Shown: piece after piece, positions 14,472-59,520 of the stretch
Numbering within the stretch: the first letter of the stretch is position 1
Layout: each line of letters begins with the position of its first letter
NCBI GenBank assembly: GCA_021846045.1
Contig: JAJZCM010000004.1
Span: forward strand, 1,244 to 65,243
Origin: a bacterium
GTDB taxonomy: Bacteria; Elusimicrobiota; Elusimicrobia; UBA1565; UBA9628
Reading direction: 5' to 3'
DNA: 64,000 bases
Notes under the pieces: model-generated
The model's input: the letters and a program-made list of their open reading frames with translations, nothing else
Told to the model about the DNA's origin: nothing
Database searches by the model: none
Made by a program: the position numbers and the translations under genes

Positions 14472-15512
14472 ATGCTTGATTTTTTCTTCCGCCTTTTCTC
14501 CAACGACATGGGCATTGACCTGGGCACTGCCAATACCTTGGTCTATGTTAAAGGCCAGGGAATTGTTTTAAGAGAGCCCTCCGTTGTCGCCATCGATCGG
14601 GAAAGTCGGCGTTTATTAGCCATCGGCGCCGAAGCAAAAAAAATGCTGGGGCGCACTCCGGCATCAATCATCGCGGTTCGTCCTCTCAAGAACGGAGTGA
14701 TCGCCGATTTTGAAGCGACGCAAGAGATGATTAAGTATTTCATCCGCAAAGTGCATAATCGCCGTTCTCTTCTGCATCCGCGGGTCGTGATTGGAATTCC
14801 TTCGGGAATTACCGAAGTGGAAAGAAGAGCCGTTCAGGAATCGGCTCAACAGGCGGGAGCGCGAGATGTGCATCTGATCGAAGAGCCGATGGCCGCGGCT
14901 ATTGGGGCGGATTTGCCGATTTCCGAGCCGAGAGGCAATTTTATCGTGGATATCGGCGGTGGAACGACGGAAGCGGCCGTGATTTCTTTGGGCGGTTTAG
15001 TTGTTTCCAAATCCCTGGATATCGCCGGAGACGAGATGGATGAGGCCATTGTCGCCCATTTCCGCAGAAAATATAATTTGTTGATTGGGGAATCGACGGC
15101 TGAGGAAGTGAAAATTCAGATCGGCTCGGTTTTCCCCTTAAAAGAAGAAAAGACGATGGAGGTTAAAGGAAGAGATCAGGCGACCGGGTTGCCTAAGACC
15201 GTTTTAATTACTTCTGAAGAGGTCAGGCAAGCCCTTTTAGATCCGGTTCAACTGATACTAGACGTCATTAAGAACACTTTAGAAGAAACGCCTGCGGAGT
15301 TGTCCGCCGATTTGGTTGATCGTGGCATTATGCTTGCAGGAGGGGGATCGCTTCTTCGCGGCCTCCCTGACTTGATTCGGCAGGAAACCGAGCTTCCAGT
15401 TCATCGCTCGGCCGATCCCCTGAGCTGCGTTGCTATCGGGACCGGTAAATTCCTGGAAGAACTTGACCGTATAATGGAACACCGCCACAGATTTGCCGTG
15501 ACCCGCTCCTAG
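14472..15512 (+). CDS. mreB: Rod shape-determining actin-like protein MreB
   Basis: [38 protein letters not shown]. Confidence 0.98.
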
Positions 15513-15594
15513 TTTGCGCTATTTGGAGTTGGAATTTCTGCCCGTCGGCGTTGTGTGTTCTTCCTAAAGAAGCGTTGTCTCTAACTAATTGAAT

Positions 15595-16452
15595 ATGCAC
15601 CGCGAGTTGCGGCTAGCCAATCGACTGGCGATTTTCTTCGTTGGAATTTCCGTCCTTCTTCTTTCCTTGCCCTTATCTGGGCCGGTCGCTTCTTTTAAAT
15701 TTGCCCTGCAATATTTGATTGAGCCGGAACTTTATCAGGGTTCTATCGGTCTTGAACGTTTGTCTGAGTTGCCGTCTTCTCTGAAAAAATTATTGCAGGC
15801 CGACATTCAAAATAGGAGTTTAACAGATCAAATCAAAATGGAGCCGGTCTTGGAATCGGAAATCGAGTCGTTAAAAACTGAAAACGATCGATTGCGCTCC
15901 GAAATGGATTTAGGAAAGAGGATTTCCTTTTCATTTGCCTGGGCGCGGGTAGTTAAAAGATCCCCCGCTGATTGGTATCAGGATTTTATTATTTCAATTG
16001 GGAAAAACAAAGGGATTGATCCCAATGATCCGGTTTTTGCCGTCAATGGCCGTAGTCTTGCCGCAATAGGGCGGGTGGTTGAGGTTCGCTCCAATACTGC
16101 GGTCGTTCAGTTGCTGACTAGCGATATTTCTGCGGTTGACTCTTTTATCGTATCTCAAAGTTCCCACACCCACGGGGCGTTTAATGGGCTTGTCCAAGGG
16201 TTGGCCGCTCCGGATTTGCAGATTAGCTATCTTCCGGTTCAAGCCCCCCTCAAGGAAGGAGACAAGGTTTATACTTCTCCCAATAGCGCGAGTTTTCCTC
16301 CATCTATCTTTATTGGGACAGTCGCCAAGGTCTATCCTGTCGATCCATTTCTAATTTTCAAATCCGCCGATATCCGCCCGGCTTTATCGCCGTCCGAGAT
16401 TAATGAGGTTTTAGTGGGCCGCGGAATTAGGAAGACGGAAATCAGCCGATGA
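15595..16452 (+). CDS. mreC: Rod shape-determining protein MreC
   Basis: N-terminal TM, coiled coil LKTENDRLR, IGRVVEV..NTAVVQLLT; follows mreB. Confidence 0.9.
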   Translation: MHRELRLANRLAIFFVGISVLLLSLPLSGPVASFKFALQYLIEPELYQGSIGLERLSELPSSLKKLLQADIQNRSLTDQIKMEPVLESEIESLKTENDRLRSEMDLGKRISFSFAWARVVKRSPADWYQDFIISIGKNKGIDPNDPVFAVNGRSLAAIGRVVEVRSNTAVVQLLTSDISAVDSFIVSQSSHTHGAFNGLVQGLAAPDLQISYLPVQAPLKEGDKVYTSPNSASFPPSIFIGTVAKVYPVDPFLIFKSADIRPALSPSEINEVLVGRGIRKTEISR

Positions 16453-16946
16453 AATTGATCAAGGGCGCGGCAATTTTTTTCTTCGGATTAGTGGGAGAGT
16501 GGATTTTTTCGCGCTATTTATCGTTCCACGGACTTAACCCCCAGATTTTATTGATTTTAACAATCGGCGTGGCGGCTTTCAACGGCACTCCTGAAGCGAT
16601 GGTGTTTGGGTTTTTCTGGGGTCTTTGTTGGGACGCGCTAAGTCTCAATTTGTTCGGCGCGCGAGCTTTGGCTTTGACCCTGGTTGCCTATGGGCTTGGT
16701 CTCGTCAGGAGGCAGGTGGATATGGTTACCCCGGGAGCGCAGGCTATTGTCGCTGTTATCGCGACGGTTCTCTATCGGATGCTCCTGGGATTTATTTATC
16801 TGATTTTCTCCGGTCAGTTCTTGTGGCTGGGATGGACGATTTTCCTTCTTGAACCTGTTTATAACGGTATTTTCTGTTTTATCTTGGCCATTCTACGGCC
16901 CAATTCTTATTTCTCCTCGTCTAGGCGCGGAAGCATTCTTTCATGA
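16449..16946 (+). CDS. mreD: Rod shape-determining protein MreD
   Basis: Polytopic membrane protein with GFFWGLCWD; position in the operon. Confidence 0.87.
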   Translation: MKLIKGAAIFFFGLVGEWIFSRYLSFHGLNPQILLILTIGVAAFNGTPEAMVFGFFWGLCWDALSLNLFGARALALTLVAYGLGLVRRQVDMVTPGAQAIVAVIATVLYRMLLGFIYLIFSGQFLWLGWTIFLLEPVYNGIFCFILAILRPNSYFSSSRRGSILS

Positions 16947-18781
16947 AAAGAAATTTTTCTGCCGAGAGAATGAGGATACTCCTAATGGGGTTTTTTATCA
17001 TATCGGTTGTGATGATCCTAAGGCTTTTCCAGATGCAAATTTTGGAGAGAGCTTCTTATACGCTAGCTGCGGAGCGCAATCGCACCGAGATGGTGTATCA
17101 AACGGCTCCTCGAGGGATTATTTACGATAGAAACGGCGTCCCCCTTGCGACCAACGAGCCGGTTTTTTCCCTCATTTATCTTCCATCGCAATCGACCACT
17201 CAATCTGAGTTGAACCGTTTAGCCGATGAGTTAAGCCGTACCCTGAGGCAAAATCCAGAGGACATATTGGCGAAGCTGGAACAGGCTAGATCGGCTCGGA
17301 CGGCTTTGCGCATCGCCGAAAACCTGCCAGTGCCGGTGATGTTTCGACTCTCGGAGTTAAAGCCCTTTTATCCTGGAATAGATTTGGTGTTGGAAGCGCG
17401 GCGCTATTATCCTTTCGGGTCCTTTGCAAGCCACTTGATCGGCTACATGGGTAAAATTAATCCCAGACAGTGGGTTCGCCTAAAAGCCCGGAATTATCGC
17501 ATGGATTCCCGGATCGGGCGCTTGGGAGTTGAATCGGTTTTTGAAAGGCAGTTGCGGGGAACAGACGGCGCCGTCAAAATAGAGGTCGACGCGCATGGGA
17601 AGATCCAAAAGATTTTAAGACGTCTTCCATGGAAAGACGGGCGGAATGTGCATTTAACTTTGGACGCCATTGTTCAAAAAGCCGCCGATGAGGGGCTGAG
17701 CCGTACTTCGACTCGGAGAGGAGCCGTGGTCGCTTTAGATCCGTCCAACGGCGACATTCTTGCGTTCGCGGCGGCTCCTGATTTCGATCCCAATCAGTTT
17801 TTAGGCGCCGATCCGTTCTCCCTTGATTATTCGACCTTTGTTCCCTCTTCGGTGCCTGAATTTGATCGCGCGATTTCCGGGCTTTATGCCCCGGGCTCGA
17901 TCTTTAAAACAATCGTCTCCGTGGCGGGAATTAATGAGGGAAAATTAGATCCCTCGCAAATTGTTTTTTGTCCTGGTTATTTTAGGCTTGGCCGGAGAAC
18001 CTTCTTGTGTTGGAATCATCGCGGGCATGGGAATGTCGATTTTTTTACCGGCCTTGCAGAGTCCTGTGACGTCTATTTTTATAAGATGGGTCTCGTTATC
18101 GGCGCGGATTTGATCGAGAAATACGAAAAGATTTTTCATTTGGGGAAAAAAACCGGGATTGCCTTAAAGGGCGAGGAGGCCGGTAATTTGTTCGGTCCTG
18201 AAACCTCCATGCAAGAAGGAAAGACTTGGGTTGGAGGGAACACTCTTAATCTCGCGATTGGTCAAGGTCGTCTTTTGGTCACCCCAATTCAGATGGCGGT
18301 GGTTGCCGCAGCCTTGGCTAATCATGGAACTTTATGGAGGCCTCAATACTTGAGATCCATCGCTCCAGAAAGCAACGGGGAAATTTTAAGACAAAGCCCC
18401 CAGCAAATCGGTTTCGTTCGGGCGAGCAAGAAGACCTGGAATTTATTGGACCAGGCGATGGCCTTGGTAGTCGCCTCGGGGACGGCCCGGGGGGCCGCCA
18501 TCAAGGGAATTGAGGTCTGGGGAAAAACAGGAACTGCGCAGAACTCTTCCGGCAAGGATCATGCCTGGTTTATCGCTTTTGCGGCCAAACCCGGACAAGC
18601 CCCTTCGATTGCGGTTTCAGTCCTAGTTGAAAACGGCGGCCATGGGGCTTCCGCCGCCGTTCCTATTGCGCGGCAGGTCATCGCCGCTGCCTTTCGGGTT
18701 GGAAAAAAAATTCAATATCAATGGCCTAAATCTTCACCTAAGAAGATTGATTCTTCCGCCGTGAAGGGAGAGACGCTATGA
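16943..18781 (+). CDS. mrdA: Penicillin-binding protein 2
   Basis: APRGIIYDRNG; transpeptidase motifs PGSIFK, SCD, KTGTAQ. Confidence 0.96.
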   Translation: MKRNFSAERMRILLMGFFIISVVMILRLFQMQILERASYTLAAERNRTEMVYQTAPRGIIYDRNGVPLATNEPVFSLIYLPSQSTTQSELNRLADELSRTLRQNPEDILAKLEQARSARTALRIAENLPVPVMFRLSELKPFYPGIDLVLEARRYYPFGSFASHLIGYMGKINPRQWVRLKARNYRMDSRIGRLGVESVFERQLRGTDGAVKIEVDAHGKIQKILRRLPWKDGRNVHLTLDAIVQKAADEGLSRTSTRRGAVVALDPSNGDILAFAAAPDFDPNQFLGADPFSLDYSTFVPSSVPEFDRAISGLYAPGSIFKTIVSVAGINEGKLDPSQIVFCPGYFRLGRRTFLCWNHRGHGNVDFFTGLAESCDVYFYKMGLVIGADLIEKYEKIFHLGKKTGIALKGEEAGNLFGPETSMQEGKTWVGGNTLNLAIGQGRLLVTPIQMAVVAAALANHGTLWRPQYLRSIAPESNGEILRQSPQQIGFVRASKKTWNLLDQAMALVVASGTARGAAIKGIEVWGKTGTAQNSSGKDHAWFIAFAAKPGQAPSIAVSVLVENGGHGASAAVPIARQVIAAAFRVGKKIQYQWPKSSPKKIDSSAVKGETL

Positions 18782-20121
18782 CGCCCCTTTCTCATTCATC
18801 CGCAAGAAAGAGCCGTCTTGACGGCGCTTTCCTGGGCTCGGTCTTGGCTCTTCTCGTCGTGGGGAGTTTGGCGGTTCTGTCGGCCGCCCGGCCTCTTCCG
18901 TATTACCATCAAGCCCTTGAGCGCCATTTCTCAGCCATGTTTTTTGGCCTTCTTATTTTTGCCGTCGCCGCGAATTTCGCTTATGAGGCCTATGAAGACC
19001 AATTCTGGGTTATTTATGGGACCGTTATTTTCTGCCTCGTCGCGGTCCTGATTTTTGGGACTGTTCATAAAGGCCATCGTTCCTGGATTCAATTGGGTTT
19101 TTTCGCATTCCAACCATCGGAATTCGCCCGAGTCGGGATGGTGTTAATTTTGGCCTCGATTCTTGACAAAAGAGCATTGAAGATGGAGTATGTCTCGACG
19201 GTCTTTATGTCCTTGGCGGCTATTTTGCCGATCGCGGCTTTGATTGTCAAACAACCCGATTTCTCGATGACATTGACTCTTTTTCCTATTTTCTTCGCGA
19301 TGCTTTTTTGCGCTGGAGCCGAATGGGAACATTTGGCGGGTTTCATCGTATTGGCTATTGCCGCGATTTCAATGCCGTTTCTCTATCTATTTTTGAGCGT
19401 CTATCATCCCTTCCCCGTTTCAGGAAGTTTTCTCCGGTTCTTCATGGAGGTATTTAGTTCCAAGGAGTCTGAGTTTGTGTTGGTTTTGGTTTTGGCCGTT
19501 ATTTTTGGGGCAGCCTATTATCTTAATCACTTGATGCATTGGCGCTTAAGAATGAGACTGTTTTTTATTTTTTGGATGTTGCTGACTTCAGGGGTCGTGG
19601 CGGGAATCACGGTCAGCCATAAGCTGAAGGGATATCAAAAAAGCCGGTTTACCGCTTATATCAATCCTCATTCCGATATCCATGGAGCGGCTTATCACGT
19701 CCATCAATCGCAGATTGCCATAGGATCCGGCGGAATCGTGGGAAAGGGACTTTTCTCCGGAACCCAGTCGCAGTTGGGTTTTCTCCCCGAACGGCACACG
19801 GATTTCATTTATTCCGTTATCGGTGAAGAGACGGGGTTTGTTGGCGCCGTCCTCGTCGTTCTTCTTTATTCGGGAATGATTTGGAGGATTGCCGATATAG
19901 GCTTTAACGCACGGGATCGCTACGGGTATCTAGTCTGTTGTGGAATTGGAGCGATGTTTGCCTTTGATTTCATTTTGAATGTAGGGATGTGCCTAGGGCT
20001 TTTTCCGGTCGCAGGAATTCCGCTCCCCTTGCTTTCCTACGGAGGATCCAGCTTGATGGCTAGTTTATGGTCTTTAGGAATTGTCGCTAATGTCGGTAGG
20101 CGCAAGTATGCGCTTTTATAA
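18778..20121 (+). CDS. rodA: Rod shape-determining protein RodA (SEDS family), with internal insertion
   Basis: FQPSEF, QPDFS, QSQIAIGSGG, PERHTDFI, IPLPLLSYGGSS. Confidence 0.95.
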   Translation: MTPLSHSSARKSRLDGAFLGSVLALLVVGSLAVLSAARPLPYYHQALERHFSAMFFGLLIFAVAANFAYEAYEDQFWVIYGTVIFCLVAVLIFGTVHKGHRSWIQLGFFAFQPSEFARVGMVLILASILDKRALKMEYVSTVFMSLAAILPIAALIVKQPDFSMTLTLFPIFFAMLFCAGAEWEHLAGFIVLAIAAISMPFLYLFLSVYHPFPVSGSFLRFFMEVFSSKESEFVLVLVLAVIFGAAYYLNHLMHWRLRMRLFFIFWMLLTSGVVAGITVSHKLKGYQKSRFTAYINPHSDIHGAAYHVHQSQIAIGSGGIVGKGLFSGTQSQLGFLPERHTDFIYSVIGEETGFVGAVLVVLLYSGMIWRIADIGFNARDRYGYLVCCGIGAMFAFDFILNVGMCLGLFPVAGIPLPLLSYGGSSLMASLWSLGIVANVGRRKYALL

Positions 20122-20141
20122 AATTTGATAGGAGGATGGTC

Positions 20142-21839
20142 ATGTCCGAAGAAGAAGTTTCTCACAAGGAAGATTTGAAAGAAGAAGTGGTCGTGAGGCA
20201 GGGCGCGGAGGAAATGCCGGAGAAACCGGCGGGTTCGTCTCCTGAGGGATCCGTGGGCGGAGACGATAAGCGCAGGCCGAAACGCCGCCGTTTCCATCAG
20301 CAGAAACGCTCGGAGCGCCAAAACCCGCGGCATGGAAATGGGCGTCCTTCTCAGGAGTCCCATGTGGCGGCTTCAGAAAATGCCCAAGGACACGCGCAGC
20401 CGACTCCGGTGAAAAGAGAAATTTTGGCAAACGTCAATGCGGAGGAAGTCCGCATTGCGATTTTGGAAAATGGGAAGTTGGTCGAACTCTTCTGGGAAAG
20501 AAAAAACCAGCAGAATCTGGTTGGGAATATTTATAAAGGGGTCATTGAAAACGTCCTTCCCGGAATCTCTTCGGCCTTTATCAATATCGGCTATGATAAA
20601 AATGCCTATCTTTACATCTCGGATGTTTTGGGAGATAAAAACGCCGGGATTGAATCTATTCTCAAAAAAAACCAGCCGGTGATGATTCAAGTCGCGAAAG
20701 AGGCGATTGGAACCAAGGGAATGAAGGTGACCATGGCGGTCAGCCTTCCGGGGCGCTATGTGGTGTTTACGCCTTTTGAAAATTTTGCTGGAGTCTCTAA
20801 AAACATTGAGAATTCCGATGAGAGAGCGAGGCTTTCCGCTTTAATGCAGGGCTTTGTCTCGGGAATTTTGGGCGGGAAGGGATTGGTGGCAAGAACCGAG
20901 GCTGAGGGAATCCCGGCGGATGAACTTGAACGGGAAGTGCGCTATCTCTTAAGTCTTTGGGAAGACATTCAGAAGAGGATGGAATCCGGACAGGCGCCGG
21001 CGCTTCTTCATAAGGATTTGGACTTGACGCTTCAGGTTGCGCGCGATATTTTATCTGAGGACGTCTCAATCTTTTTGTGCGACAACAAAGAGGCGTGCGA
21101 GCAGTTGTCGGAATTCATTGATAAAATCTCGCCCGAGCTTAAAAAGAGAATTCAGTTCTATGAGGGGAAGACCCCGATATTTAAGGCGTTTAAAATCGAG
21201 GAAGGCATTGAAAAAATGCGTAAACCCATCGTCTCTCTGCCTAACGGGGGCTCTATCGTCATTCAAGAGGCGGAATCTCTTTGCGCCATCGACGTTAATA
21301 CCGGACGTTTCACCGGATCGAAATCACAGGAAGAAACAGTCACTCAAACCAATATCGAGGCGGCTAAGGAAGTCGCTCACCAGCTGAGACTGCGAAATAT
21401 CGGCGGCATTATCGTCGTCGACTTTATCGATATGAAAAAGGCTTCCAATAGAAATAAGGTGATGGATGCTTTTGCTGCGGCCCTCCGAGGAGACCGTGCG
21501 AAAATTCGGATACTTCCCATTACCAGACTGGGCTTGATTGAATTGACGAGAGAACGTAAGCGCGAGTCTACGGTCAAATTGATAACCCAGGAATGCCGGG
21601 AATGCCACGGCTCAGGGCGGGTTCTTTCGGAAGAAACGATGCGCATCAAGATTCAAGAAGAAGTTTTGGATATGACGCGCGGACGACCGGGCGGACAAGT
21701 TCGCGTCTGCGTTCACCCGCTCATTGCGGAATTTCTCAAGTCCAAGCAGTCAACGATAGAAAAAAATATTCAGCGTTCGATTAAGATCGAATCTAGCCCC
21801 GCCATTCCCTTGGAGGATTATCGCATTATTTTAGAATGA
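20142..21839 (+). CDS. Ribonuclease E/G family
   Basis: VGNIYKGVIENVLPG S1 domain, IDVNTGRF, GGIIVVDFIDM, CRECHGSG; disordered N-terminus; SD GGAGG favours ATG 20142. Confidence 0.95.
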   Translation: MSEEEVSHKEDLKEEVVVRQGAEEMPEKPAGSSPEGSVGGDDKRRPKRRRFHQQKRSERQNPRHGNGRPSQESHVAASENAQGHAQPTPVKREILANVNAEEVRIAILENGKLVELFWERKNQQNLVGNIYKGVIENVLPGISSAFINIGYDKNAYLYISDVLGDKNAGIESILKKNQPVMIQVAKEAIGTKGMKVTMAVSLPGRYVVFTPFENFAGVSKNIENSDERARLSALMQGFVSGILGGKGLVARTEAEGIPADELEREVRYLLSLWEDIQKRMESGQAPALLHKDLDLTLQVARDILSEDVSIFLCDNKEACEQLSEFIDKISPELKKRIQFYEGKTPIFKAFKIEEGIEKMRKPIVSLPNGGSIVIQEAESLCAIDVNTGRFTGSKSQEETVTQTNIEAAKEVAHQLRLRNIGGIIVVDFIDMKKASNRNKVMDAFAAALRGDRAKIRILPITRLGLIELTRERKRESTVKLITQECRECHGSGRVLSEETMRIKIQEEVLDMTRGRPGGQVRVCVHPLIAEFLKSKQSTIEKNIQRSIKIESSPAIPLEDYRIILE

Positions 21840-23065
21840 CAACCCCTATTTTCGCGTCAAAGGCCTTTCGCCGCTTTTTGATTTTAGCGCCGCTTATTTT
21901 TCCGCTTTCAGTTTTTGCTGAGGCGGCGCCCATTTCAATTGCGTTTGCCCATACCGGCAACCCTCCGAAAATCGTTTCCGGATACCGTTTAGGCTCCGAT
22001 TATTTTTTGGGCGCGGATGAAATGGCGCGTCTTTATGGAGCGCAGATCTATTGGCGTCCGGTATCAAAAATCGTGGAACTGAGCCGCTCGGGGCGTATCG
22101 TCGCTTTTAAGGCCAATGCGGCGGCGGCGTCTGTCTCGGGACATGCGGTTCCGCTTAAGTCTCCTATCGTGTGGAGCGCTTCGGATGCGTGGATTCCGGT
22201 TTCTTTTTTGGAGTCCCCTGCTTTCGCTGACTGGTCCGGGACCCCGGCCTTTTTCGATCAGCGTAAGTCGCTTTTGACGATTGGGGAATCAAAGCCTCTG
22301 TCGCCAGTGATTGCTCCTATCCATCCCAAAGCGGCTCCCGTTGCGAAACCGCAGGTTCCTTATGGACGCATTTGGGTTAGAAAGCTTCGCATCGTCGTTG
22401 ATCCGGGCCACGGCGGAAAGGACCCGGGCGCGAGGGGAATTCATGGCGCTCTTGAGAAGGATATCAATCTTAAAGCCGCTCTGGAGCTTGTCCGTTTGCT
22501 GAAAAAAACCGGCGTTTTCGACGTTCGCTTGACTCGTCACGATGACACCTTTGTCTCTCTTTCCAAACGCTCCGAGATTGCCAACAAATGGAAGGCCGAT
22601 CTGTTCGTTTCCCTTCACTCCAATGCCGCGCAAAACCCCAGAGATTCCGGATTTGAGACTTATTTTATGTCTGAGAAGGCTTCCGACCCGCACGCGCAGC
22701 GTTTGGCGGAGTTTGAAAACTCTTCCATTAACTATGAGTCCAAGTTTCGCCAACAGGCTGAAGTTCAAATGCTCTTGGGCGAGTTATCGAAAACGGAATA
22801 TGTCAACGCTTCTTCGGAGTTCGCGGGTCTGGTTTCCCGGGAGACCAGCGGAGAGGTCAATATCCCGGACAAGGGGGTCGCACAGGCGGGGTTTTACGTG
22901 CTAAGAGGGACTCACGCGCCGGCCATCCTTTTTGAGATGGGATATTTGACCAATGCCAAAGACGAAGAGGATTTAAGGAGCGAAAGTTTTCGCCGGCGCC
23001 TCATGCGCGGTTTATATTCGGGGATTGTCGATTATGCAAAAAAAATCAACCATCCAAAAAAATAG
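21836..23065 (+). CDS. N-acetylmuramoyl-L-alanine amidase (Amidase_3) with N-terminal accessory domain
   Basis: Signal peptide; IVVDPGHGGKDPG, EKDINL, SLHSNA, LFEMGYLTN. Confidence 0.94.
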   Translation: MTTPIFASKAFRRFLILAPLIFPLSVFAEAAPISIAFAHTGNPPKIVSGYRLGSDYFLGADEMARLYGAQIYWRPVSKIVELSRSGRIVAFKANAAAASVSGHAVPLKSPIVWSASDAWIPVSFLESPAFADWSGTPAFFDQRKSLLTIGESKPLSPVIAPIHPKAAPVAKPQVPYGRIWVRKLRIVVDPGHGGKDPGARGIHGALEKDINLKAALELVRLLKKTGVFDVRLTRHDDTFVSLSKRSEIANKWKADLFVSLHSNAAQNPRDSGFETYFMSEKASDPHAQRLAEFENSSINYESKFRQQAEVQMLLGELSKTEYVNASSEFAGLVSRETSGEVNIPDKGVAQAGFYVLRGTHAPAILFEMGYLTNAKDEEDLRSESFRRRLMRGLYSGIVDYAKKINHPKK

Positions 23066-23873
23066 CATTCGGGAGACCGCTCGCCCTATTGGAGTGTTTG
23101 ACTCGGGGATTGGAGGGCTCACCGTTTTTAAAGCTTTGCGCGCATTGATGCCGGAAGAGGATATAATTTATTTTGGGGACACGGCGCATCTGCCCTATGG
23201 TTCGAAATCCAAGGCTTCGATCGTTCAATTTTCGGTTGAGATCGCCCGTTTCTTATGCCGACAAAATATTAAAGCGTTGGTCGTGGCTTGCAATACCTCC
23301 ACCGCGGTGGCCTTGTCCGAAATTAAAAAAGCCGTTTCTATTCCGGTCGAAGGGGTTATTGTTCCCGGAGCGCGGGCTTGCTCCCGGATTGGTTCCCAGA
23401 AAATTGGAGTGATTGGAACCGAGGGGACGGTTAGGTCAGGGGCTTATGCGAAGGAAATAAAAAAATTTTTTCCTCAAGCCCGTGTTTTTCAAGTGGCGTG
23501 TCCTCTTTTTGTTCCCTTGGTTGAAGAGGGATGGTGGAATTTTGACGTGACCGAAGCGGTGGCGCGGATTTACCTCAAATCCCTTCAAAAAGCCCGGGTG
23601 GACTCCCTGGTTTTGGGGTGCACTCATTACCCGGTTATTAAATCGGTCATTGCGCGCGTCATGGGGAGAAAGGTATCGTTGATTGATTCTGGAGAAGAAA
23701 CGGCCAAGGAGTTTGAAAAAACATTGGAGTCGCTCAAATTGAGAAAGAAGAAAGGCCGCGGCTGGTCTCGCTTTTACGCTTCCGATGATCCCGGGCGGTT
23801 CTTGAAGATGTCCCGCCGCTTTCTCGGCTCCTCAATTACGGTCAACCAAGTCTTAAAGAAAAATTTTGAATAA
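23034..23873 (+). CDS. murI: Glutamate racemase
   Basis: IGVFDSGIGGLTV, PYGSKS, VACNTST, LGCTHYP. Confidence 0.97.
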   Translation: MQKKSTIQKNSIRETARPIGVFDSGIGGLTVFKALRALMPEEDIIYFGDTAHLPYGSKSKASIVQFSVEIARFLCRQNIKALVVACNTSTAVALSEIKKAVSIPVEGVIVPGARACSRIGSQKIGVIGTEGTVRSGAYAKEIKKFFPQARVFQVACPLFVPLVEEGWWNFDVTEAVARIYLKSLQKARVDSLVLGCTHYPVIKSVIARVMGRKVSLIDSGEETAKEFEKTLESLKLRKKKGRGWSRFYASDDPGRFLKMSRRFLGSSITVNQVLKKNFE

Positions 23874-23963
23874 CTGCTCAGGTTCGTCATTCCGGCGCAA
23901 GCCGGAATCCAGAAAATCGCTGCTCTGGACCCCGGCTTGCGCCGGGGTGACGTGAGTAGTTAA
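23870..23963 (+). mobile_element. 94-bp MITE-like element carrying an inverted CGTC-REP hairpin dimer (copy 1)
   Basis: Imperfect 12-bp terminal inverted repeats ATAACTGCTCAG / GTGAGTAGTTAA; direct repeat AATTTTGA at 23862-23869 and 23964-23971; core 23885-23952. Confidence 0.85.
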
Positions 23964-23976
23964 AATTTTGAATGAT

Positions 23977-24573
23977 ATGAATGAAACGATCGCTTTAATG
24001 GCGCGGGCCAAGGCTTCCATTGATAATGGCTTGAGTCGGTTGGGCAAGGACATGGATTTCCAAAATCCCGTGGACTCGGTCTTGGTGGTCTTCGCTTCTC
24101 GCGCCGTGGCCTCTTCCAATGCGATAGCCTTGTTGATTTCCCACGGACATGAGATCGAGGCCTTGCCCATCTTGAATGCCTTGAGCATTCTATCGGTATG
24201 GTCGCGCTGGATCATGGAGAAAGACTCGGAAGATAGGGCCAATGAAGCGTTGTCTCAAATCTCAAAACCGGATTGGGTAATCTATTGGCAGAAGGATTTG
24301 TTGTCCGAGCGCGCCGCGCATCTTAATTTTGAAAGCGCGCTTAGACAAATGATCATTGAGCTTAAACCTCTCAGGTTTTACTCTAAAACCGGCAGCGTTC
24401 CCTGGGATCATTTATCCGAAAAATACTTTTTTAGGCCCCCGGCGGCGTCTACGGTGGGCGAGGCCGCGGGCCTTTTTATGACGCATATCGTGGAAGCGTT
24501 GGAAGTTCGATGGAAGGGATATTTTACGGGACTAGAAGAAGTCGCTAATCGACAGCGGAGGCAGAAGGCATGA
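23977..24573 (+). CDS. Hypothetical all-helical protein, weakly reminiscent of DUF5677/HEPN-like folds
   Basis: About 198-aa ORF; stop overlaps the rho-like start (ATGA); family guess is weak. Confidence 0.7.
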   Translation: MNETIALMARAKASIDNGLSRLGKDMDFQNPVDSVLVVFASRAVASSNAIALLISHGHEIEALPILNALSILSVWSRWIMEKDSEDRANEALSQISKPDWVIYWQKDLLSERAAHLNFESALRQMIIELKPLRFYSKTGSVPWDHLSEKYFFRPPAASTVGEAAGLFMTHIVEALEVRWKGYFTGLEEVANRQRRQKA

Positions 24574-25598
24574 ATAATCCTGAACAACATGGATCGGGCG
24601 GCGGTCATTTTGGGCGGAAGAGGTTTCGCCCTCGTTATCGTAACCGTCCCGGGCAAAGGTGGAATAAGAGGCAAAACAACAATCCTAATTCCGGCGGCAT
24701 GGGAACCATGGAGGCGAGATCTCCCCGGGTTTTAAGCGAAATAGAAAAGGCTTTCGCTGACAAAACTCCGGTGGACCCCCATCAATGGATCCAGTTGGAA
24801 AAAGGCTCGTCGGATTTGACGATGCGCGCGATGGATTTGTTGTGCCCCATCGGACGTGGAACCCGGGGCTTGATTGTCGCTCCTCCGAAAGCGGGAAAAA
24901 CCACGATTTTAAAATCGCTATCGAATACTATTTACGCGGTGGACCCGAGCATCAAGCAGTATTGCCTGTTAGTGGATGAACGCCCCGAGGAAGTGACCGA
25001 TTTTAAAAGGAGCGTCAAAGCCGAGGTGTCTGCTTCATCCAGCGACAAGAGCTACCAAGAGCATGTGGCGACCGCGGAGGCGCTGATGGGAAAAGCGATA
25101 GCGGATGCGGCCGGCGGCGCGGATGTTCTGATTCTGCTGGATTCTTTGACCCGGCTTTCGCGCGTTCATAATCAATTCGCGGGCGGGTCCAGGACCATGA
25201 CGGGCGGGCTTGATTCCCGTGCGATGGAAGTTCCCCGCCGTTTTTTCGGGGCCGCTCGAAAATTGGAGGAAGGAGGGTCTTTGACCATCATCGCCACGAT
25301 CCTAGTTGACACGGGCAGCAAAATGGATGATATTATATTCCAAGAGTTTAAAGGCACGGGGAACATGGAAATCGTCCTTTCCCGACAAGCCGCGGAGATG
25401 CGGCTTTTTCCGGCGATGAAGGTTCGCGATTCCGGAACTAGAAAGGAAGAAAAATTATTTCCTCCTGATGTCCTCGAAGGCGTCTGGAAGTTGAGAAGGC
25501 TTTTGGCGGATAAGGGCGACAGCGAGGCCTTGAAGTCTCTGTTGGAGTTGATGCGCACGCATAAAACAAATCACGCACTATTGGGAGCTCTTAAATGA
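24570..25598 (+). CDS. rho: Transcription termination factor Rho-like protein lacking the N-terminal RNA-binding domain
   Basis: APPKAGKT, LVDERPEEVT, LDSLTRL, DTGSKMD, EFKGTGNME, SGTRKEE; only about 55 aa precede the ATPase domain. Confidence 0.93.
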   Translation: MNNPEQHGSGGGHFGRKRFRPRYRNRPGQRWNKRQNNNPNSGGMGTMEARSPRVLSEIEKAFADKTPVDPHQWIQLEKGSSDLTMRAMDLLCPIGRGTRGLIVAPPKAGKTTILKSLSNTIYAVDPSIKQYCLLVDERPEEVTDFKRSVKAEVSASSSDKSYQEHVATAEALMGKAIADAAGGADVLILLDSLTRLSRVHNQFAGGSRTMTGGLDSRAMEVPRRFFGAARKLEEGGSLTIIATILVDTGSKMDDIIFQEFKGTGNMEIVLSRQAAEMRLFPAMKVRDSGTRKEEKLFPPDVLEGVWKLRRLLADKGDSEALKSLLELMRTHKTNHALLGALK

Positions 25599-25981
25599 AC
25601 GACGAAAAAAAAGCCCTTCATAGCGATTTAGCGCCTAAGGCGATTGGACCTTATTCTCAGGCTGTCCAAATGGGAAATTTGGTGTTTGTTTCCGGACAGA
25701 TTCCCGCAGATCCCGCCGGAAATCCGGTCAAGGGAACGATTGCGGATCTGACCAATCAATGCTTGGGGCAAATCGACGCCATTTTGCGTACGGTCGGCTT
25801 GTCTTTGGCGAACGTGGTGAAAACGACGGTTTATATGACCGATTTATCGCAATTTCCGGCTATGAACGAAGCCTATGCCGGACATTTCAACCAGCCCTAT
25901 CCCGCGCGCGCGACCGTGGAGGTTAAATCCCTTCCCAAGGGCGTTTCAATCGAGATTGACGCCGTCGCTATCCGAAAATAA
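25595..25981 (+). CDS. ridA: RidA/YjgF enamine-imine deaminase
   Basis: APKAIGPYSQA, FVSGQIP, PARATVEVKSLP, IEIDAVA. Confidence 0.93.
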   Translation: MNDEKKALHSDLAPKAIGPYSQAVQMGNLVFVSGQIPADPAGNPVKGTIADLTNQCLGQIDAILRTVGLSLANVVKTTVYMTDLSQFPAMNEAYAGHFNQPYPARATVEVKSLPKGVSIEIDAVAIRK

Positions 25982-26085: not shown

Positions 26086-28602
26086 ATGAGCCATAAAACA
26101 TCAATCGAAAAAGTTGCGCATTCATCAGGGAGTGTTTTGGTCACCGAAAACCAGTTGAAGGTTATTAAGGATAAATATCTCCGTGATGCGGCGTCTGTTG
26201 AAACGTGGCTCAGGGGAGTCGCTCACAATATCGCTTTAGCGGAAATCATTTACGATTCCCGAGCCGAGGAGTGGGGGGCGTTTGACGGCGTTCATATCGT
26301 TTCTGAAAAAATTCCGGCCTCTTTAGGCGTCGCCGTTTCGCGCATGAACCTTTTTCACGACGGATTGCGTTCTTCTTCAGAGCGGGAGAAGAACTTCGCG
26401 TGTTTGATGTCAAATCTCGAGAAAATTTACCAAAAAAATAAAATTGCGCAATCCTTGGTGTCCACGTGGGAGGATAAATTTTTTGCCTTGATGTCCTCTT
26501 GGGATTTTTTGCCTAATTCTCCGACTTTAATGAATGCGGGGCGGGATTTGCAGCAGCTGTCCGCCTGCTATGTTCTTCCCGTGGCCGATTCGATGGAGGG
26601 CATCAATGATGCCTTGGCCGCGCAGTCCTTGATTCAAAAATCAGGCGGCGGAACGGGTTTTGCTTTCAGCCAGCTTCGCTCCCGAGGAGATTTGGTTAAG
26701 AAAACCCACGGCGTCGCTTCCGGCGCGATTTCCTTCATGCAGCTTTTCGACAAGATGACGGAAGTCGTCAAGCAGGGAGGAACCCGCAGAGGGGCGAATA
26801 TGGGTATATTGCATTACACCCACCCCGAGATCAAGGATTTTATCACTCTTAAATCACAGCCCGGCGTCATGGAAAATTTCAACGTCTCGGTCGCCATTGA
26901 TGAGACTTTCATGAAAGCGGTGGCTGCCGACTCTGAATACGATCTCCTGAATCCCCGCACCAAGGAACCTGCGGGGCGGGTCAAAGCGCGTGAAATTTTC
27001 GACTTGATGGTAGAACAGGCGTGGAAGACCGGAGACCCGGGCATGATCGTCATCGACCGGATCAATTCCTCCGGATCAAACCCCACTCCCGCGTTAGGGC
27101 ACATTGAGTCGACCAACCCTTGCGGAGAACAGCCGCTTTTGCCTTGGGAGCCTTGCAACTTGGGTTCTCTTAATCTTTCTAGTTTCGTCCATGGAAATGT
27201 CATGTCGGGCGAGTTTGATTTTAAGAAACTCGGCGAAGCCGTTCGGACTGCAGTTCGCTTTTTAGATGACGTCATTGAGGTTAATAATTATCCTCTTCCT
27301 GAAATCGAACGAATGGCCAAGGGAAACCGCCGAATAGGCCTTGGCGTCATGGGTTTTGCCGAGGCTTTGGTTAAAGTGGGAATCGCTTATGATTCTGAGG
27401 CTTGTTTTTCTTTCGCCGAAAAATTAATGCATTCCATTAATGACGCGGCGCTCAATGCCTCCGAGGAATTGGCCAAGGAGCGCGGCGTATTCCCGAATTG
27501 GAAAAACTCCGTTTATGATCCGGAAGGATCTCATTTTAGGGGAGAAAGCCGCACGCCTCGCCATTGCGCGCGCACAACCATCGCTCCAACCGGAACGATT
27601 GCTATTGCCGCCGGACTCCAGGGCGGAGGAATTGAGCCCTTCTTTGCTATCGCCTACACCCGCTACAACGCGCAGGCTCTCGCCAAGATCAAAAACGGAG
27701 AAAAACCGGCCGACAAAGACGTCTTCTTTGAGATTAATCCTCTTTTTCAGAGCATCGCCAAGGAAAATAATTTCTTTGGACTCTCGGAAAAGGAATTGTG
27801 GGGCTTAATCGATAAAAATCACAAGTCCGTGCGGGGGCTCTCGGCCGTTCCGGCTAAAATCCAGTCGCTGTTCCCGACCGCCCATGACGTCGGAATCGAA
27901 GATCATGTCCGCATTCAGGCCGCGTTCCAAAAACATACGGATAACGGGGTTTCAAAAACTATCAATCTTCCGCATTCCGCTACGGTTGAGGATGTTCGCC
28001 GGGCTTATCTGTTGGCCTATGAGCTCAATTGCAAGGGAATCACGATTTACCGCGACGGTTCGAAGGCCCAGCAGGTTTTAAACATCGCTCCGGCTCAGGA
28101 GAAAAAGAATCGCCGCGAATCGGTCCAGCGGGCTTTCGGCGTTTCTTCCGAGTATTATCAGATGCGGACCGGTTATGGGCCGCTCCATATTCACATCAAC
28201 TACGATGAGCGGGGCCCTTACCAGATGTTTACCAATATTCCGCCCTTGGGAACTGAAATTTCGGGACTTACGTCTTTAGTGGGAATTCTCCTTTCCAAGT
28301 ATTTTGCGGAGGGAGGAGATCCCATTCGCGTTTTGAAGCATCTCAACTGCGTCAAAGGCGACCGCCCGTCCGGCTTCGGTGAAAATAGGGTGGACTCAAT
28401 TCCCCATGCCATCGCGATCGCCCTTCGTCAGCACTTGAAAAAAACCGGATGGCTGGAAGAAGGCTCGGGCTCGGCTAAGATGGAGGCCGTGCCGCTTCCC
28501 CTGAGCTCGTATTGCCCAAAGTGCTATTCTTCCAATGTTTCGTTTGAATCCGGATGTCCCGGTCCCGTTTGCCACGACTGCGGCTTTTCCGAGTGTTCAT
28601 AA
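26086..28602 (+). CDS. nrdJ: Class II (adenosylcobalamin-dependent) ribonucleotide reductase with C-terminal TSCPD-like domain and Zn ribbon
   Basis: FLPNSPTLMNAG, LSACYV, RRGANMG, TNPCGEQ, CNLGS, TIAPTGT, KGITIYRDGS; no intein seen. Confidence 0.94.
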   Translation: MSHKTSIEKVAHSSGSVLVTENQLKVIKDKYLRDAASVETWLRGVAHNIALAEIIYDSRAEEWGAFDGVHIVSEKIPASLGVAVSRMNLFHDGLRSSSEREKNFACLMSNLEKIYQKNKIAQSLVSTWEDKFFALMSSWDFLPNSPTLMNAGRDLQQLSACYVLPVADSMEGINDALAAQSLIQKSGGGTGFAFSQLRSRGDLVKKTHGVASGAISFMQLFDKMTEVVKQGGTRRGANMGILHYTHPEIKDFITLKSQPGVMENFNVSVAIDETFMKAVAADSEYDLLNPRTKEPAGRVKAREIFDLMVEQAWKTGDPGMIVIDRINSSGSNPTPALGHIESTNPCGEQPLLPWEPCNLGSLNLSSFVHGNVMSGEFDFKKLGEAVRTAVRFLDDVIEVNNYPLPEIERMAKGNRRIGLGVMGFAEALVKVGIAYDSEACFSFAEKLMHSINDAALNASEELAKERGVFPNWKNSVYDPEGSHFRGESRTPRHCARTTIAPTGTIAIAAGLQGGGIEPFFAIAYTRYNAQALAKIKNGEKPADKDVFFEINPLFQSIAKENNFFGLSEKELWGLIDKNHKSVRGLSAVPAKIQSLFPTAHDVGIEDHVRIQAAFQKHTDNGVSKTINLPHSATVEDVRRAYLLAYELNCKGITIYRDGSKAQQVLNIAPAQEKKNRRESVQRAFGVSSEYYQMRTGYGPLHIHINYDERGPYQMFTNIPPLGTEISGLTSLVGILLSKYFAEGGDPIRVLKHLNCVKGDRPSGFGENRVDSIPHAIAIALRQHLKKTGWLEEGSGSAKMEAVPLPLSSYCPKCYSSNVSFESGCPGPVCHDCGFSECS

Positions 28603-28610
28603 AAACGAAG

Positions 28611-28704
28611 GCAACTACTCACGTCACCCCGACGAAAGTCGGGGTCCAGAGCAGCAATCTTCTGGATTCCGGCTTGCGCCGGAATGACGAACCTGAGCAG
28701 TTAC
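28611..28704 (-). mobile_element. 94-bp MITE-like element with CGTC-REP dimer (copy 2, inverted relative to copy 1)
   Basis: Ends GCAACTACTCAC / CTGAGCAGTTAC; perfect 8-bp direct repeat AAACGAAG at 28603-28610 and 28705-28712; near-identical to the reverse complement of copy 1. Confidence 0.87.
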
Positions 28705-37049: not shown

Positions 37050-37114
37050 TTTAAGTATTTTACTTATTAGACGCGTCAAATGGGGTGATGTGAGTAGTTG
37101 TAAAGGGGGTTGTT

Positions 37115-59326: not shown

Positions 59327-59327
59327 T

Positions 59328-59399
59328 GGGCCTGTAGTTCAACGGATAGAGCGCGTGGCTTCGAACCACGAGATCCGGGTTCGATTCCTGGCGGGCCCA
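59328..59399 (+). tRNA. tRNA-Arg (anticodon TCG), CCA not encoded
   Basis: Acceptor GGGCCTG/CGGGCCC; anticodon arm CGTGG-CTTCGAA-CCACG; T-arm CCGGG-TTCGATT-CCTGG. Confidence 0.95.
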
Positions 59400-59520
59400 A
59401 ACTTCTTCCTTCATTCATTACCTGCTTCGATTATTTTGTAACAAAAAAGCCCTTGAAATAATCTTGTTCGGGGGCTATCCTTGCTTCAGGATTGGTACGC
59501 TTATTTCTTTGGAGGAAGGT

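Follow-up and report, generated by a model that had tools for sequence, protein, structure and literature searches.

A Rho-type motor without the OB-fold RNA-binding domain and with an arginine-rich disordered tail in Elusimicrobiota

Introduction

In the accepted mechanism of Rho, an OB-fold primary site binds C-rich RNA first, and this contact is thought to tether Rho, choose its targets and promote ring closure. Canonical Rho of the Escherichia coli type (NF006886/TIGR00767; PDB 1PVO, 3ICE, 5JJI and 6DUQ) has an N-terminal domain (NTD, residues 1-120 in E. coli) with a helix bundle (PF07498, residues 5-47) and the OB fold that forms the primary site (PF07497, residues 51-125), followed by a connector and a RecA-type C-terminal domain (CTD, residues 154-419)(PMC11829017). 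Here we describe a rho gene in a 64-kb stretch of DNA from an uncultured member of the Elusimicrobiota (contig JAJZCM010000004.1; the whole of this stretch is referred to as the window). Its product has the connector and the RecA-type CTD in common with canonical Rho but has nothing of the NTD, and we call it, together with its relatives, OB-less Rho.

Two described types of Rho come closest to it. Atypical Type 2 Rho proteins (Bacteroides thetaiotaomicron, Mycobacterium tuberculosis, Micrococcus luteus and Clostridium botulinum) carry disordered Arg/Gly/Gln/Asn-rich segments near the RNA-entry face. These disordered 'additional regions' contain RxR, QN and Pro/Ala-rich motifs, Arg-rich insertions in the Rho of M. 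tuberculosis and M. luteus increase RNA affinity, and one disordered region of an atypical Rho drives phase separation (PMC11347177). In Type 2 proteins, however, the disordered region is added to the OB fold, whereas in the window Rho it is fused straight to the connector, and the tail would therefore be the sole RNA-capture element outside the central channel. The other type is the Rho 'short form' NF041509 (paralog_Rho2), which is the Type 4 Rho of Moreira et al. 2024 (PMC11347177) and, as cited there, 'Group B' of D'Heygere et al. 2013. Like OB-less Rho, it is a shortened paralogue with an intact ATPase, often present as a second genome copy; unlike OB-less Rho, it has lost the helix bundle only and keeps the OB fold.

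Published surveys leave little room for a Rho without this fold. In Moreira et al. 2024 (NAR 52:8979; PMC11347177), a 'functional Rho' requires both RNA-binding and ATPase domains, and the window Rho fits the definition of 'Rho-like' given there (one Rho domain detected); such sequences were excluded from 'functional Rho' and left to the supplement, and the main text gives no phylogeny, tail conservation, synteny or DUF5677 link for them. The OB domain PF07497 is required for 'functional Rho' in PMC11347177 and PMC13613805, it is the first selection step for Rho candidates in a Nat Commun 2025 survey (PMC11829017), and a Microbiome 2026 survey uses the functional definition of Moreira et al. 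Because the surveys require the OB domain, the OB-less family falls outside them by design. A literature search found no paper describing an OB-less Rho family.

Domain architecture of the window Rho

Nothing of the NTD remains, neither the helix bundle nor the OB fold, which in canonical Rho reads YC-rich rut sites. The sole match in a Pfam scan of the 342-aa protein was PF00006 (residues 85-288, 1.1e-18). About 60 residues only precede the alignment to the Rho connector-core, and an in-frame stop lies seven codons 5' of the ATG. A hidden Markov model (HMM) of the Rho N-terminal/OB region, built from 71 canonical rho loci and E. coli, matched 74 canonical loci at E<1e-5 as positive controls (examples 1e-17 to 1e-58). 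Run in six frames at E<=10, it found no match in the whole window or in any short-form locus with 10-kb flanks, and it stayed negative in two additional sets of related Elusimicrobiota DNA (414 kb and 450 kb). As the six-frame search was negative while the 74 controls were positive, there is no frameshifted OB remnant in this assembly, and a hidden or frameshifted OB fold was ruled out.

The rest of the protein is a Rho core. It passes NF006886, the NCBIfam model of full-length Rho, with 363.3 bits (cutoff 315), residues 59-339 aligning with model positions 130-411; the TIGR00767 score (345.7) is below the cutoff of 509.45. NF006886 is passed by every OB-less form tested, and this presumably explains why they appear as plain Rho in NCBI records. 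Solved Rho chains in PDB match the protein at E 1e-74 to 1e-84, with residues 62-336 corresponding to E. coli Rho 133-411, and the identity to canonical Rho over connector and CTD is about 48-50%. Given the E. coli domain limits, the start of this alignment means that the window protein begins at the connector. The fusion point, SExEKAF..KTPVDP..W, is identical in position across all OB-less Elusimicrobiota family members. An AlphaFold2 model from a 101-sequence alignment (mean predicted local distance difference test score, pLDDT, 79; predicted template modelling score 0.76) has a confident fold over residues 50-342, the Q-loop being the sole low-pLDDT loop inside the folded part. Foldseek superimposed 280-292 columns on the Rho connector and CTD at 2-2.6 Å, and the Rho matches include RNA-bound, NusG-bound and RNA polymerase (RNAP)-bound/pre-termination-complex structures.

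Membership in NF041509 was rejected. The window Rho scored 303 bits against a cutoff of 628, over profile positions 64-358 of 360, and all proteins tested, eight other OB-less proteins included, reached 288-353 bits, i.e., ~300 bits below the cutoff. Alignments of the OB-containing proteins P0142 and P0181 start from positions 17 and 2, respectively, those of OB-less proteins from about 67-80, and NF041509 itself retains the OB fold.

An earlier note, made from the letters of this DNA alone, had described the gene as a rho with an intact ATPase motor, in which an Arg/Gly/Asn-rich disordered peptide stands in place of the helical and OB-fold domain. Its coordinates, strand and N-terminal string were reproduced exactly, and all the motor motifs that it quoted were located in the protein. 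The absence of the domain is borne out by Pfam (no PF07497, no PF07498) and by the NTD HMM, and the disordered nature of the peptide by the AlphaFold2 model, in which residues 1-49 are disordered (Table 1). The note had also named two findings that would speak against its reading, a frameshifted OB-coding segment upstream and decay of the orthologues; the six-frame search of the window shows no such segment in this assembly, and the selection estimates given below show no decay.

Table 1. The OB-less Rho gene, its parts and its neighbours in the window
Feature	Position	Strand	Basis or conservation
OB-less Rho gene: tail, connector and RecA motor, 342 aa	24570..25598	+	Open reading frame, ATG start
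Shine-Dalgarno-like GGAGG, 8 nt 5' of the rho ATG, within the end of the DUF5677 gene	24557..24561	+	Read from the sequence
Disordered Arg/Gly/Asn-rich N-terminal tail (residues 1-49), net charge about +10	24570..24716	+	pLDDT about 40, no secondary structure (AlphaFold2)
Arg cluster RKRFRPRYRNR (residues 16-26), RxR-type motif	24615..24647	+	101-sequence alignment
Connector (residues 50-84), equivalent to E. coli Rho about 121-155, with the fusion point SExEKAF..KTPVDP..W	24717..24821	+	Alignment to E. coli Rho from F133
Walker A/P-loop APPKAGKTT (104-112)	24879..24905	+	K181, G183, K184, T185 equivalents invariant, 32/32 clade members
DERPEE (136-141): catalytic Glu (E211 equivalent), Arg valve (R212 equivalent)	24975..24992	+	Invariant
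Walker B VLILLDS (186-192)	25125..25145	+	D265, S266 equivalents invariant
Q-loop (204-215), containing RTMTGGLD (208-215); part of the secondary RNA-binding site	25179..25214	+	K283/T286/G287/G288 equivalents in canonical range
R-loop DTGSKMD (247-253); part of the secondary RNA-binding site	25308..25328	+	T323-D328 equivalents conserved
Arg finger SGTRKEE (288-294)	25431..25451	+	R366 equivalent invariant
DUF5677-family gene, 201 aa; stop overlaps rho start (ATGA); candidate partner/regulator	23968..24573	+	PF18928 in orthologues
ridA (RidA/L-PSP family); start overlaps rho stop (ATGA)	25595..25981	+	PF01042, 1.6e-38
Co-directional array mreB-mreC-mreD-PBP2-rodA-RNase E/G-amidase-murI	14472..23873	+	Pfam on the contig of a 95%-identical relative
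murI near rho		same as rho	26/31 loci
ridA near rho		same as rho	26/31 loci
RNase E/G near rho		same as rho	24/31 loci
Amidase near rho		same as rho	24/31 loci
DUF5677 near rho		same as rho	21/31 loci

Conservation of the motor and of the tail

Residues needed by the motor have been kept throughout the clade. The equivalents of K181/G183/K184/T185, D210/E211/R212, D265 and R366 (E. coli numbering) do not vary among 32 members. At the positions of the Q-loop (283, 286-288) and R-loop (323-328), which grip RNA in the central channel, no residue beyond the canonical repertoire occurs. The ratio of non-synonymous to synonymous substitution rates (dN/dS) against a 95%-identical relative is 0.016 for motor residues 56-342 (dS 1.24, near saturation) and 0.13 for the tail (dS 0.77). 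Judged by these ratios, both parts are under purifying selection, and a decaying pseudogene was ruled out.

The tail is variable in length and constant in character. Positions M1, N2, G8, R18, R20, R22 and R24 are >=90% conserved across the 101 sequences, and the Arg cluster of the window protein aligns with an RRRRRR run of its relatives. Although family tails range from about 48 to 120 aa, they keep 8-13 Arg and a net charge of +7 to +11. Full-length members follow a common plan: an 'M(M)NEE' start, a G/Q-rich part, the Arg run, a Q/G/N-rich part, a Pro-rich linker and the junction. The motif types, RxR, QN and Pro/Ala-rich, are those of the additional regions described in PMC11347177.

In at least six metagenome-assembled genomes (MAGs) the locus is split over two contigs, with the break in or beside the low-complexity tail DNA (L182/L202, L189/L220, L173/L230, L166/L250, L179/L221 and L082/L134). 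Such breaks at the tail, together with start calls at an internal Met, account for the 280-297-aa 'Rho' entries in the databases.

Distribution and phylogeny

The 120 best database matches are proteins of 280-408 aa with PF00006 only, and all those with a named organism come from Elusimicrobia/Elusimicrobiota MAGs. The tail-bearing architecture was found in well over 60 Elusimicrobiota species, and a family-specific scan with one genome per species gave 435 relatives. OB-less forms outside Elusimicrobiota belong to Planctomycetales, Omnitrophota and many marine Gammaproteobacteria, and cluster names add Hydrogenedentes and Sericytochromatia MAGs; these forms have an in-frame stop 19-60 codons 5' of the motor and a short basic N-terminal peptide particular to each group. 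A library clustered at 50% contains 1,739 clusters that match at E<=1e-30; among the 150 closest, only a handful lack the OB domain.

Neighbour-joining trees (65 sequences, 283 columns, 200 bootstraps) place all sampled OB-less Rho in one clade outside canonical Rho (200/200), with a tail-bearing Elusimicrobiota subclade (200/200) and a second one, subclade B (198/200). Eight positions separate the OB-less branch from canonical Rho; canonical proteins are on average 60% identical across phyla, and canonical and OB-less ones 50%. These comparisons indicate that the OB-less branch is old and that its motor lineage is distinct from canonical Rho. The phylogeny of short Rho proteins that the earlier note had called for thus finds them monophyletic, and its notion of a replacement stands in part: the OB domain is absent and a basic peptide is in its place, but an old monophyletic branch present in several phyla does not agree with a local event.

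Subclade B unites marine Gammaproteobacteria, Planctomycetes, Omnitrophota and some Elusimicrobiota-labelled MAGs, and is sister to the tail-bearing subclade with 58% identity. The two share the fusion point, a basic N-terminal peptide and the eight clade-specific substitutions. They differ in that subclade B tails have about 20-50 aa, shorter than those of the Elusimicrobiota subclade; that K181 of the P-loop is replaced by Gly, whereas it is retained in Elusimicrobiota; and that DUF5677 and the housekeeping gene array described below are missing. The tail is an Elusimicrobiota-specific elaboration of the OB-less branch.

The gammaproteobacterial short forms begin with a Lys-rich 'MTRKxLSLKVKR' and are on average 82.5% identical to each other (loci L094-L159), while their loci are named from varied genera and families (Paraglaciecola, Amphritea, Microbulbifer, Halioglobus, Francisellaceae), which suggests horizontal spread. 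Three Elusimicrobia-labelled MAGs (L101, L109 and L111) have a near-tailless form of the subclade B type, with 19-30 codons from stop to motor; Elusimicrobiota may possess two OB-less types, or these bins may be mislabelled. Further OB-less relatives are a 301-aa protein of a Candidatus Sericytochromatia MAG (P0147) and a 365-aa cluster from Candidatus Hydrogenedentes (P0125). The former comes from a non-photosynthetic lineage of the cyanobacterial phylum and bears on claims of Rho-free Cyanobacteriota. In another three proteins of the representative library (P0264, 460 aa; P0165, 405 aa; P0177, 600 aa), no more than about 10-90 residues precede the Rho motor, and a C-terminal extension of 95-230 aa comes after it.

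Two further associations were rejected. In PADLOC, the protein matched nothing but mad8, weakly and over the P-loop (E 2.6e-5, 22 bits), and we do not take this as a sign of an anti-phage defence protein; all matches in a phage collection are canonical-type Rho with about 49% identity and not phage-encoded relatives of the OB-less form.

Genomic context

What is new here is the tight, often overlapping DUF5677-rho pair inside a conserved gene array in Elusimicrobiota. The full order is mreB-mreC-mreD-PBP2-rodA-RNase E/G-amidase-murI-DUF5677-rho-ridA. Between 18 and 26 of the 31 clade loci have the upstream genes in the same orientation as rho; the exception is mreB, which lies at the edge of the flanking DNA covered and was seen in only six. 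None of murI, ridA, RNase E/G, amidase and DUF5677 was found beside subclade B genes.

In 21 of 32 clade loci, the end of the DUF5677 gene falls between -14 and +30 nt relative to the start of rho, and seven loci, the window included, have the ATGA overlap. The gene is 1.8 kb distant in two loci and missing from four, where murI abuts rho. The window copy scores 18.6 bits with PF18928 (E 0.0021), below the gathering cutoff of 27.1. Of its 16 orthologues, 13 match at E<=0.1 (best 4.9e-10), and on these profile matches the gene probably belongs to PF18928. The orthologues diverge fast (25-38% identity). We searched the genome collection with this DUF5677 subfamily and obtained 31 loci, all Elusimicrobiota; in 25 of the 25 with enough downstream DNA, a short rho lies 284-408 nt downstream on the same strand. 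This linkage makes the DUF5677 gene, which the earlier note did not mention, a candidate partner of OB-less Rho. We found no solved relative of it in PDB and no literature on its function. The protein is near neutral, so that a pairing with the tail by charge is not obvious.

For the junction with ridA, a composite DNA pattern of the rho C-terminus and the ridA N-terminus was run against 185,579 species and recovered 64 stretches. Every one of them belongs to an Elusimicrobiota-labelled or unlabelled MAG, and they include the closed 3.80-Mb chromosome CP096137.1 and the 3.10-Mb contig CBDIQC010000001.1. Those with a readable 5' end are all of the tail type, and none has an OB-domain match.

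One MAG, GFS_2774, contains two differing complete DUF5677-rho-ridA loci with different tails (L206 and L233; JAYTIP010000034.1 and JAYTIP010000277.1), which reflects either a mixed bin or a real duplication.

Functional interpretation

Our leading explanation, which we consider as likely to be right as not, is that OB-less Rho is functional and works as a hexameric translocase whose tails capture RNA without sequence specificity, perhaps with help from DUF5677. The protein would assemble into a hexameric ring and translocate on RNA 5'-to-3' by ATP hydrolysis as Rho does, with six flexible Arg-rich tails in place of six OB folds capturing RNA electrostatically and with little sequence preference. 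By raising the local RNA concentration at the ring opening, the tails could feed RNA into the intact secondary site, after which the ring would close; the DUF5677 protein may assist this capture or loading step as an adaptor or regulator. Most likely, OB-less Rho would terminate transcription or survey naked RNA, in either case without the rut-site selectivity of canonical Rho.

A stronger form of this proposal, in which the tail-bearing protein is the sole Rho of these uncultured Elusimicrobiota, termination proceeds without a rut-reading primary site, tails (possibly as condensates) capture RNA and co-translated DUF5677 serves as adaptor or regulator, we regard as unlikely. If true, it would make this a natural minimal Rho, with the OB domain dispensable for the core cellular job of Rho. 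Several observations weigh against the leading explanation. In canonical Rho, occupancy of the primary binding site helps ring closure, and NTD contacts help to bind RNAP, NusA and NusG (PMC11829017); given these contributions, a motor without the NTD might terminate poorly on its own. Canonical Rho does exist in the phylum, as PF07497-selected proteins are listed for Elusimicrobium minutum Pei191 (WP_041691396.1) and E. proavitum (WP_052571573.1) (PMC11829017, supplementary data) and a PNAS 2024 paper mentions a Rho NTD of Elusimicrobia without an accession; with two cultured Elusimicrobiota carrying OB-containing Rho, the genome of the window may have a canonical copy too. In sister subclade B, a gammaproteobacterial assembly (Oceanicoccus, JBALTE01) has a canonical rho (L041, NTD match 5.6e-54) in addition to a short one (L157), and another copy is on a phage-plasmid, both as expected of an accessory paralogue. 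The phage-plasmid copy, a 319-aa OB-less Rho (WP_163836858.1; L254 5908-6867), is encoded on plasmid pB (NZ_CP048880.1, 102 kb, circular) of the cultured Spartinivicinus ruber, alone on its strand between holin and small hypothetical genes and beside terminase and capsid genes, in a moron-like position on what is an apparent phage-plasmid. It is 83-90% identical to the other loci of the gamma group, and is an experimentally tractable OB-less member. Subclade B behaves in the manner of an accessory gene.

Could the Elusimicrobiota protein be accessory as well? We hold it possible, though doubtful, that a canonical OB-containing Rho encoded elsewhere in the genome is modulated by it, through mixed hexamers with fewer RNA-recognition sites or through competition for RNA, RNAP or NusG, or that it serves specialised transcripts. 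The separate paralogous lineage (200/200), the S. ruber plasmid copy and the OB-containing proteins of E. minutum and E. proavitum are all consistent with this, as is the pairing of canonical and short rho in JBALTE01, and hetero-hexamers have been proposed for species with two rho genes (PMC11347177). The earlier note had listed loading through the tail, through a partner or through RNAP, and modulation in hetero-hexamers, as possible mechanisms; all four are candidates, and the last gains support from the Gammaproteobacteria with both forms in one assembly. The Elusimicrobiota clade, however, differs from subclade B in the features that matter: 24-26 of its 31 loci have the conserved housekeeping array, of which no neighbour was seen in subclade B, it has a very low dN/dS and keeps K181, and it bears a long conserved tail of a kind found on primary Rho proteins. 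Moreover, no canonical rho was seen within 10 kb at about 100 Elusimicrobiota loci, which is weak evidence. A MAG labelled 'Candidatus Endomicrobium trichonymphae' (L169/L205, CALRXP010000026.1) has DUF5677-rho-ridA, and the tail is of the usual G/Q/R-rich type; should the label be correct, Endomicrobiia holds both the short form and, in E. proavitum, canonical Rho.

Rho co-purifies with the degradosome of Rhodobacter capsulatus, and the mreBCD-rng linkage is old and widespread, e.g., mreBCD-yhdE-rng in E. coli. The former fact would fit a motor for RNA remodelling or decay, a Rho-derived translocase which is not a termination factor but prepares RNA for RNase E/G or other processing machinery by unwinding or stripping it; the RNase E/G gene that 24 of 31 loci carry on the strand of rho, three to four genes upstream, points the same way, and gammaproteobacterial short forms often adjoin pseudouridine-synthase-like and DEAD-box helicase genes (named by reading the sequences). 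The latter makes the proximity of RNase E/G probably incidental. As the immediate neighbours are DUF5677 and ridA and not RNases, and as the catalytic and RNA-contact residues checked are indistinguishable from those of termination-competent Rho, we find such a decay motor quite improbable. That the gene is an artefact, whether a canonical rho that was truncated, frameshifted or misassembled or a pseudogene in decay, is effectively refuted. Low-complexity tail DNA does break assemblies, several MAGs split the gene and 280-aa entries begin at an internal Met; yet the full-length architecture recurs in more than 60 species-level genomes, the closed chromosome and the 3.10-Mb contig among them, an upstream in-frame stop and a Shine-Dalgarno-like sequence frame the start, there is no OB remnant in any frame, and selection acts on both parts.

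A branch of Rho has long been without the OB domain, with the motor and channel residues that we checked under strong constraint. In one phylum it has acquired a conserved Arg-rich disordered tail and a dedicated gene next door. It offers a natural experiment on what the primary site is needed for, on basic disordered regions versus a folded domain in the loading of ring helicases, and on the use of Rho paralogues. It also has a practical consequence: as surveys count Rho by the OB domain and annotation says plain 'Rho', statements on which lineages have or lack Rho-dependent termination can err both ways.

Other features of the window

The DUF5677-rho-ridA-nrdJ block is bracketed by two near-identical inverted copies of a palindromic intergenic repeat of roughly 90 nt (23874-23960 on the plus and 28599-28690 on the minus strand), with a partial copy at 37082-37097. 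As RNA, the repeat would form a long hairpin (-61.6 kcal/mol, z -10.6), and its 16-mer core occurs three times against 0.01 expected. The murI-DUF5677 gap measures 94 nt in the window and 2 nt in the 95%-identical relative (L160), which leaves no room for the repeat there. It looks like a mobile insertion of the type of miniature inverted-repeat transposable elements (MITE) or repetitive extragenic palindromes (REP). Terminators are not enriched around the rho gene (22 found versus 18.4 +/- 5.0 expected). A tRNA-Arg (TCG) at 59327-59400 is the sole RNA gene identified by ARAGORN and Rfam in the 64 kb.

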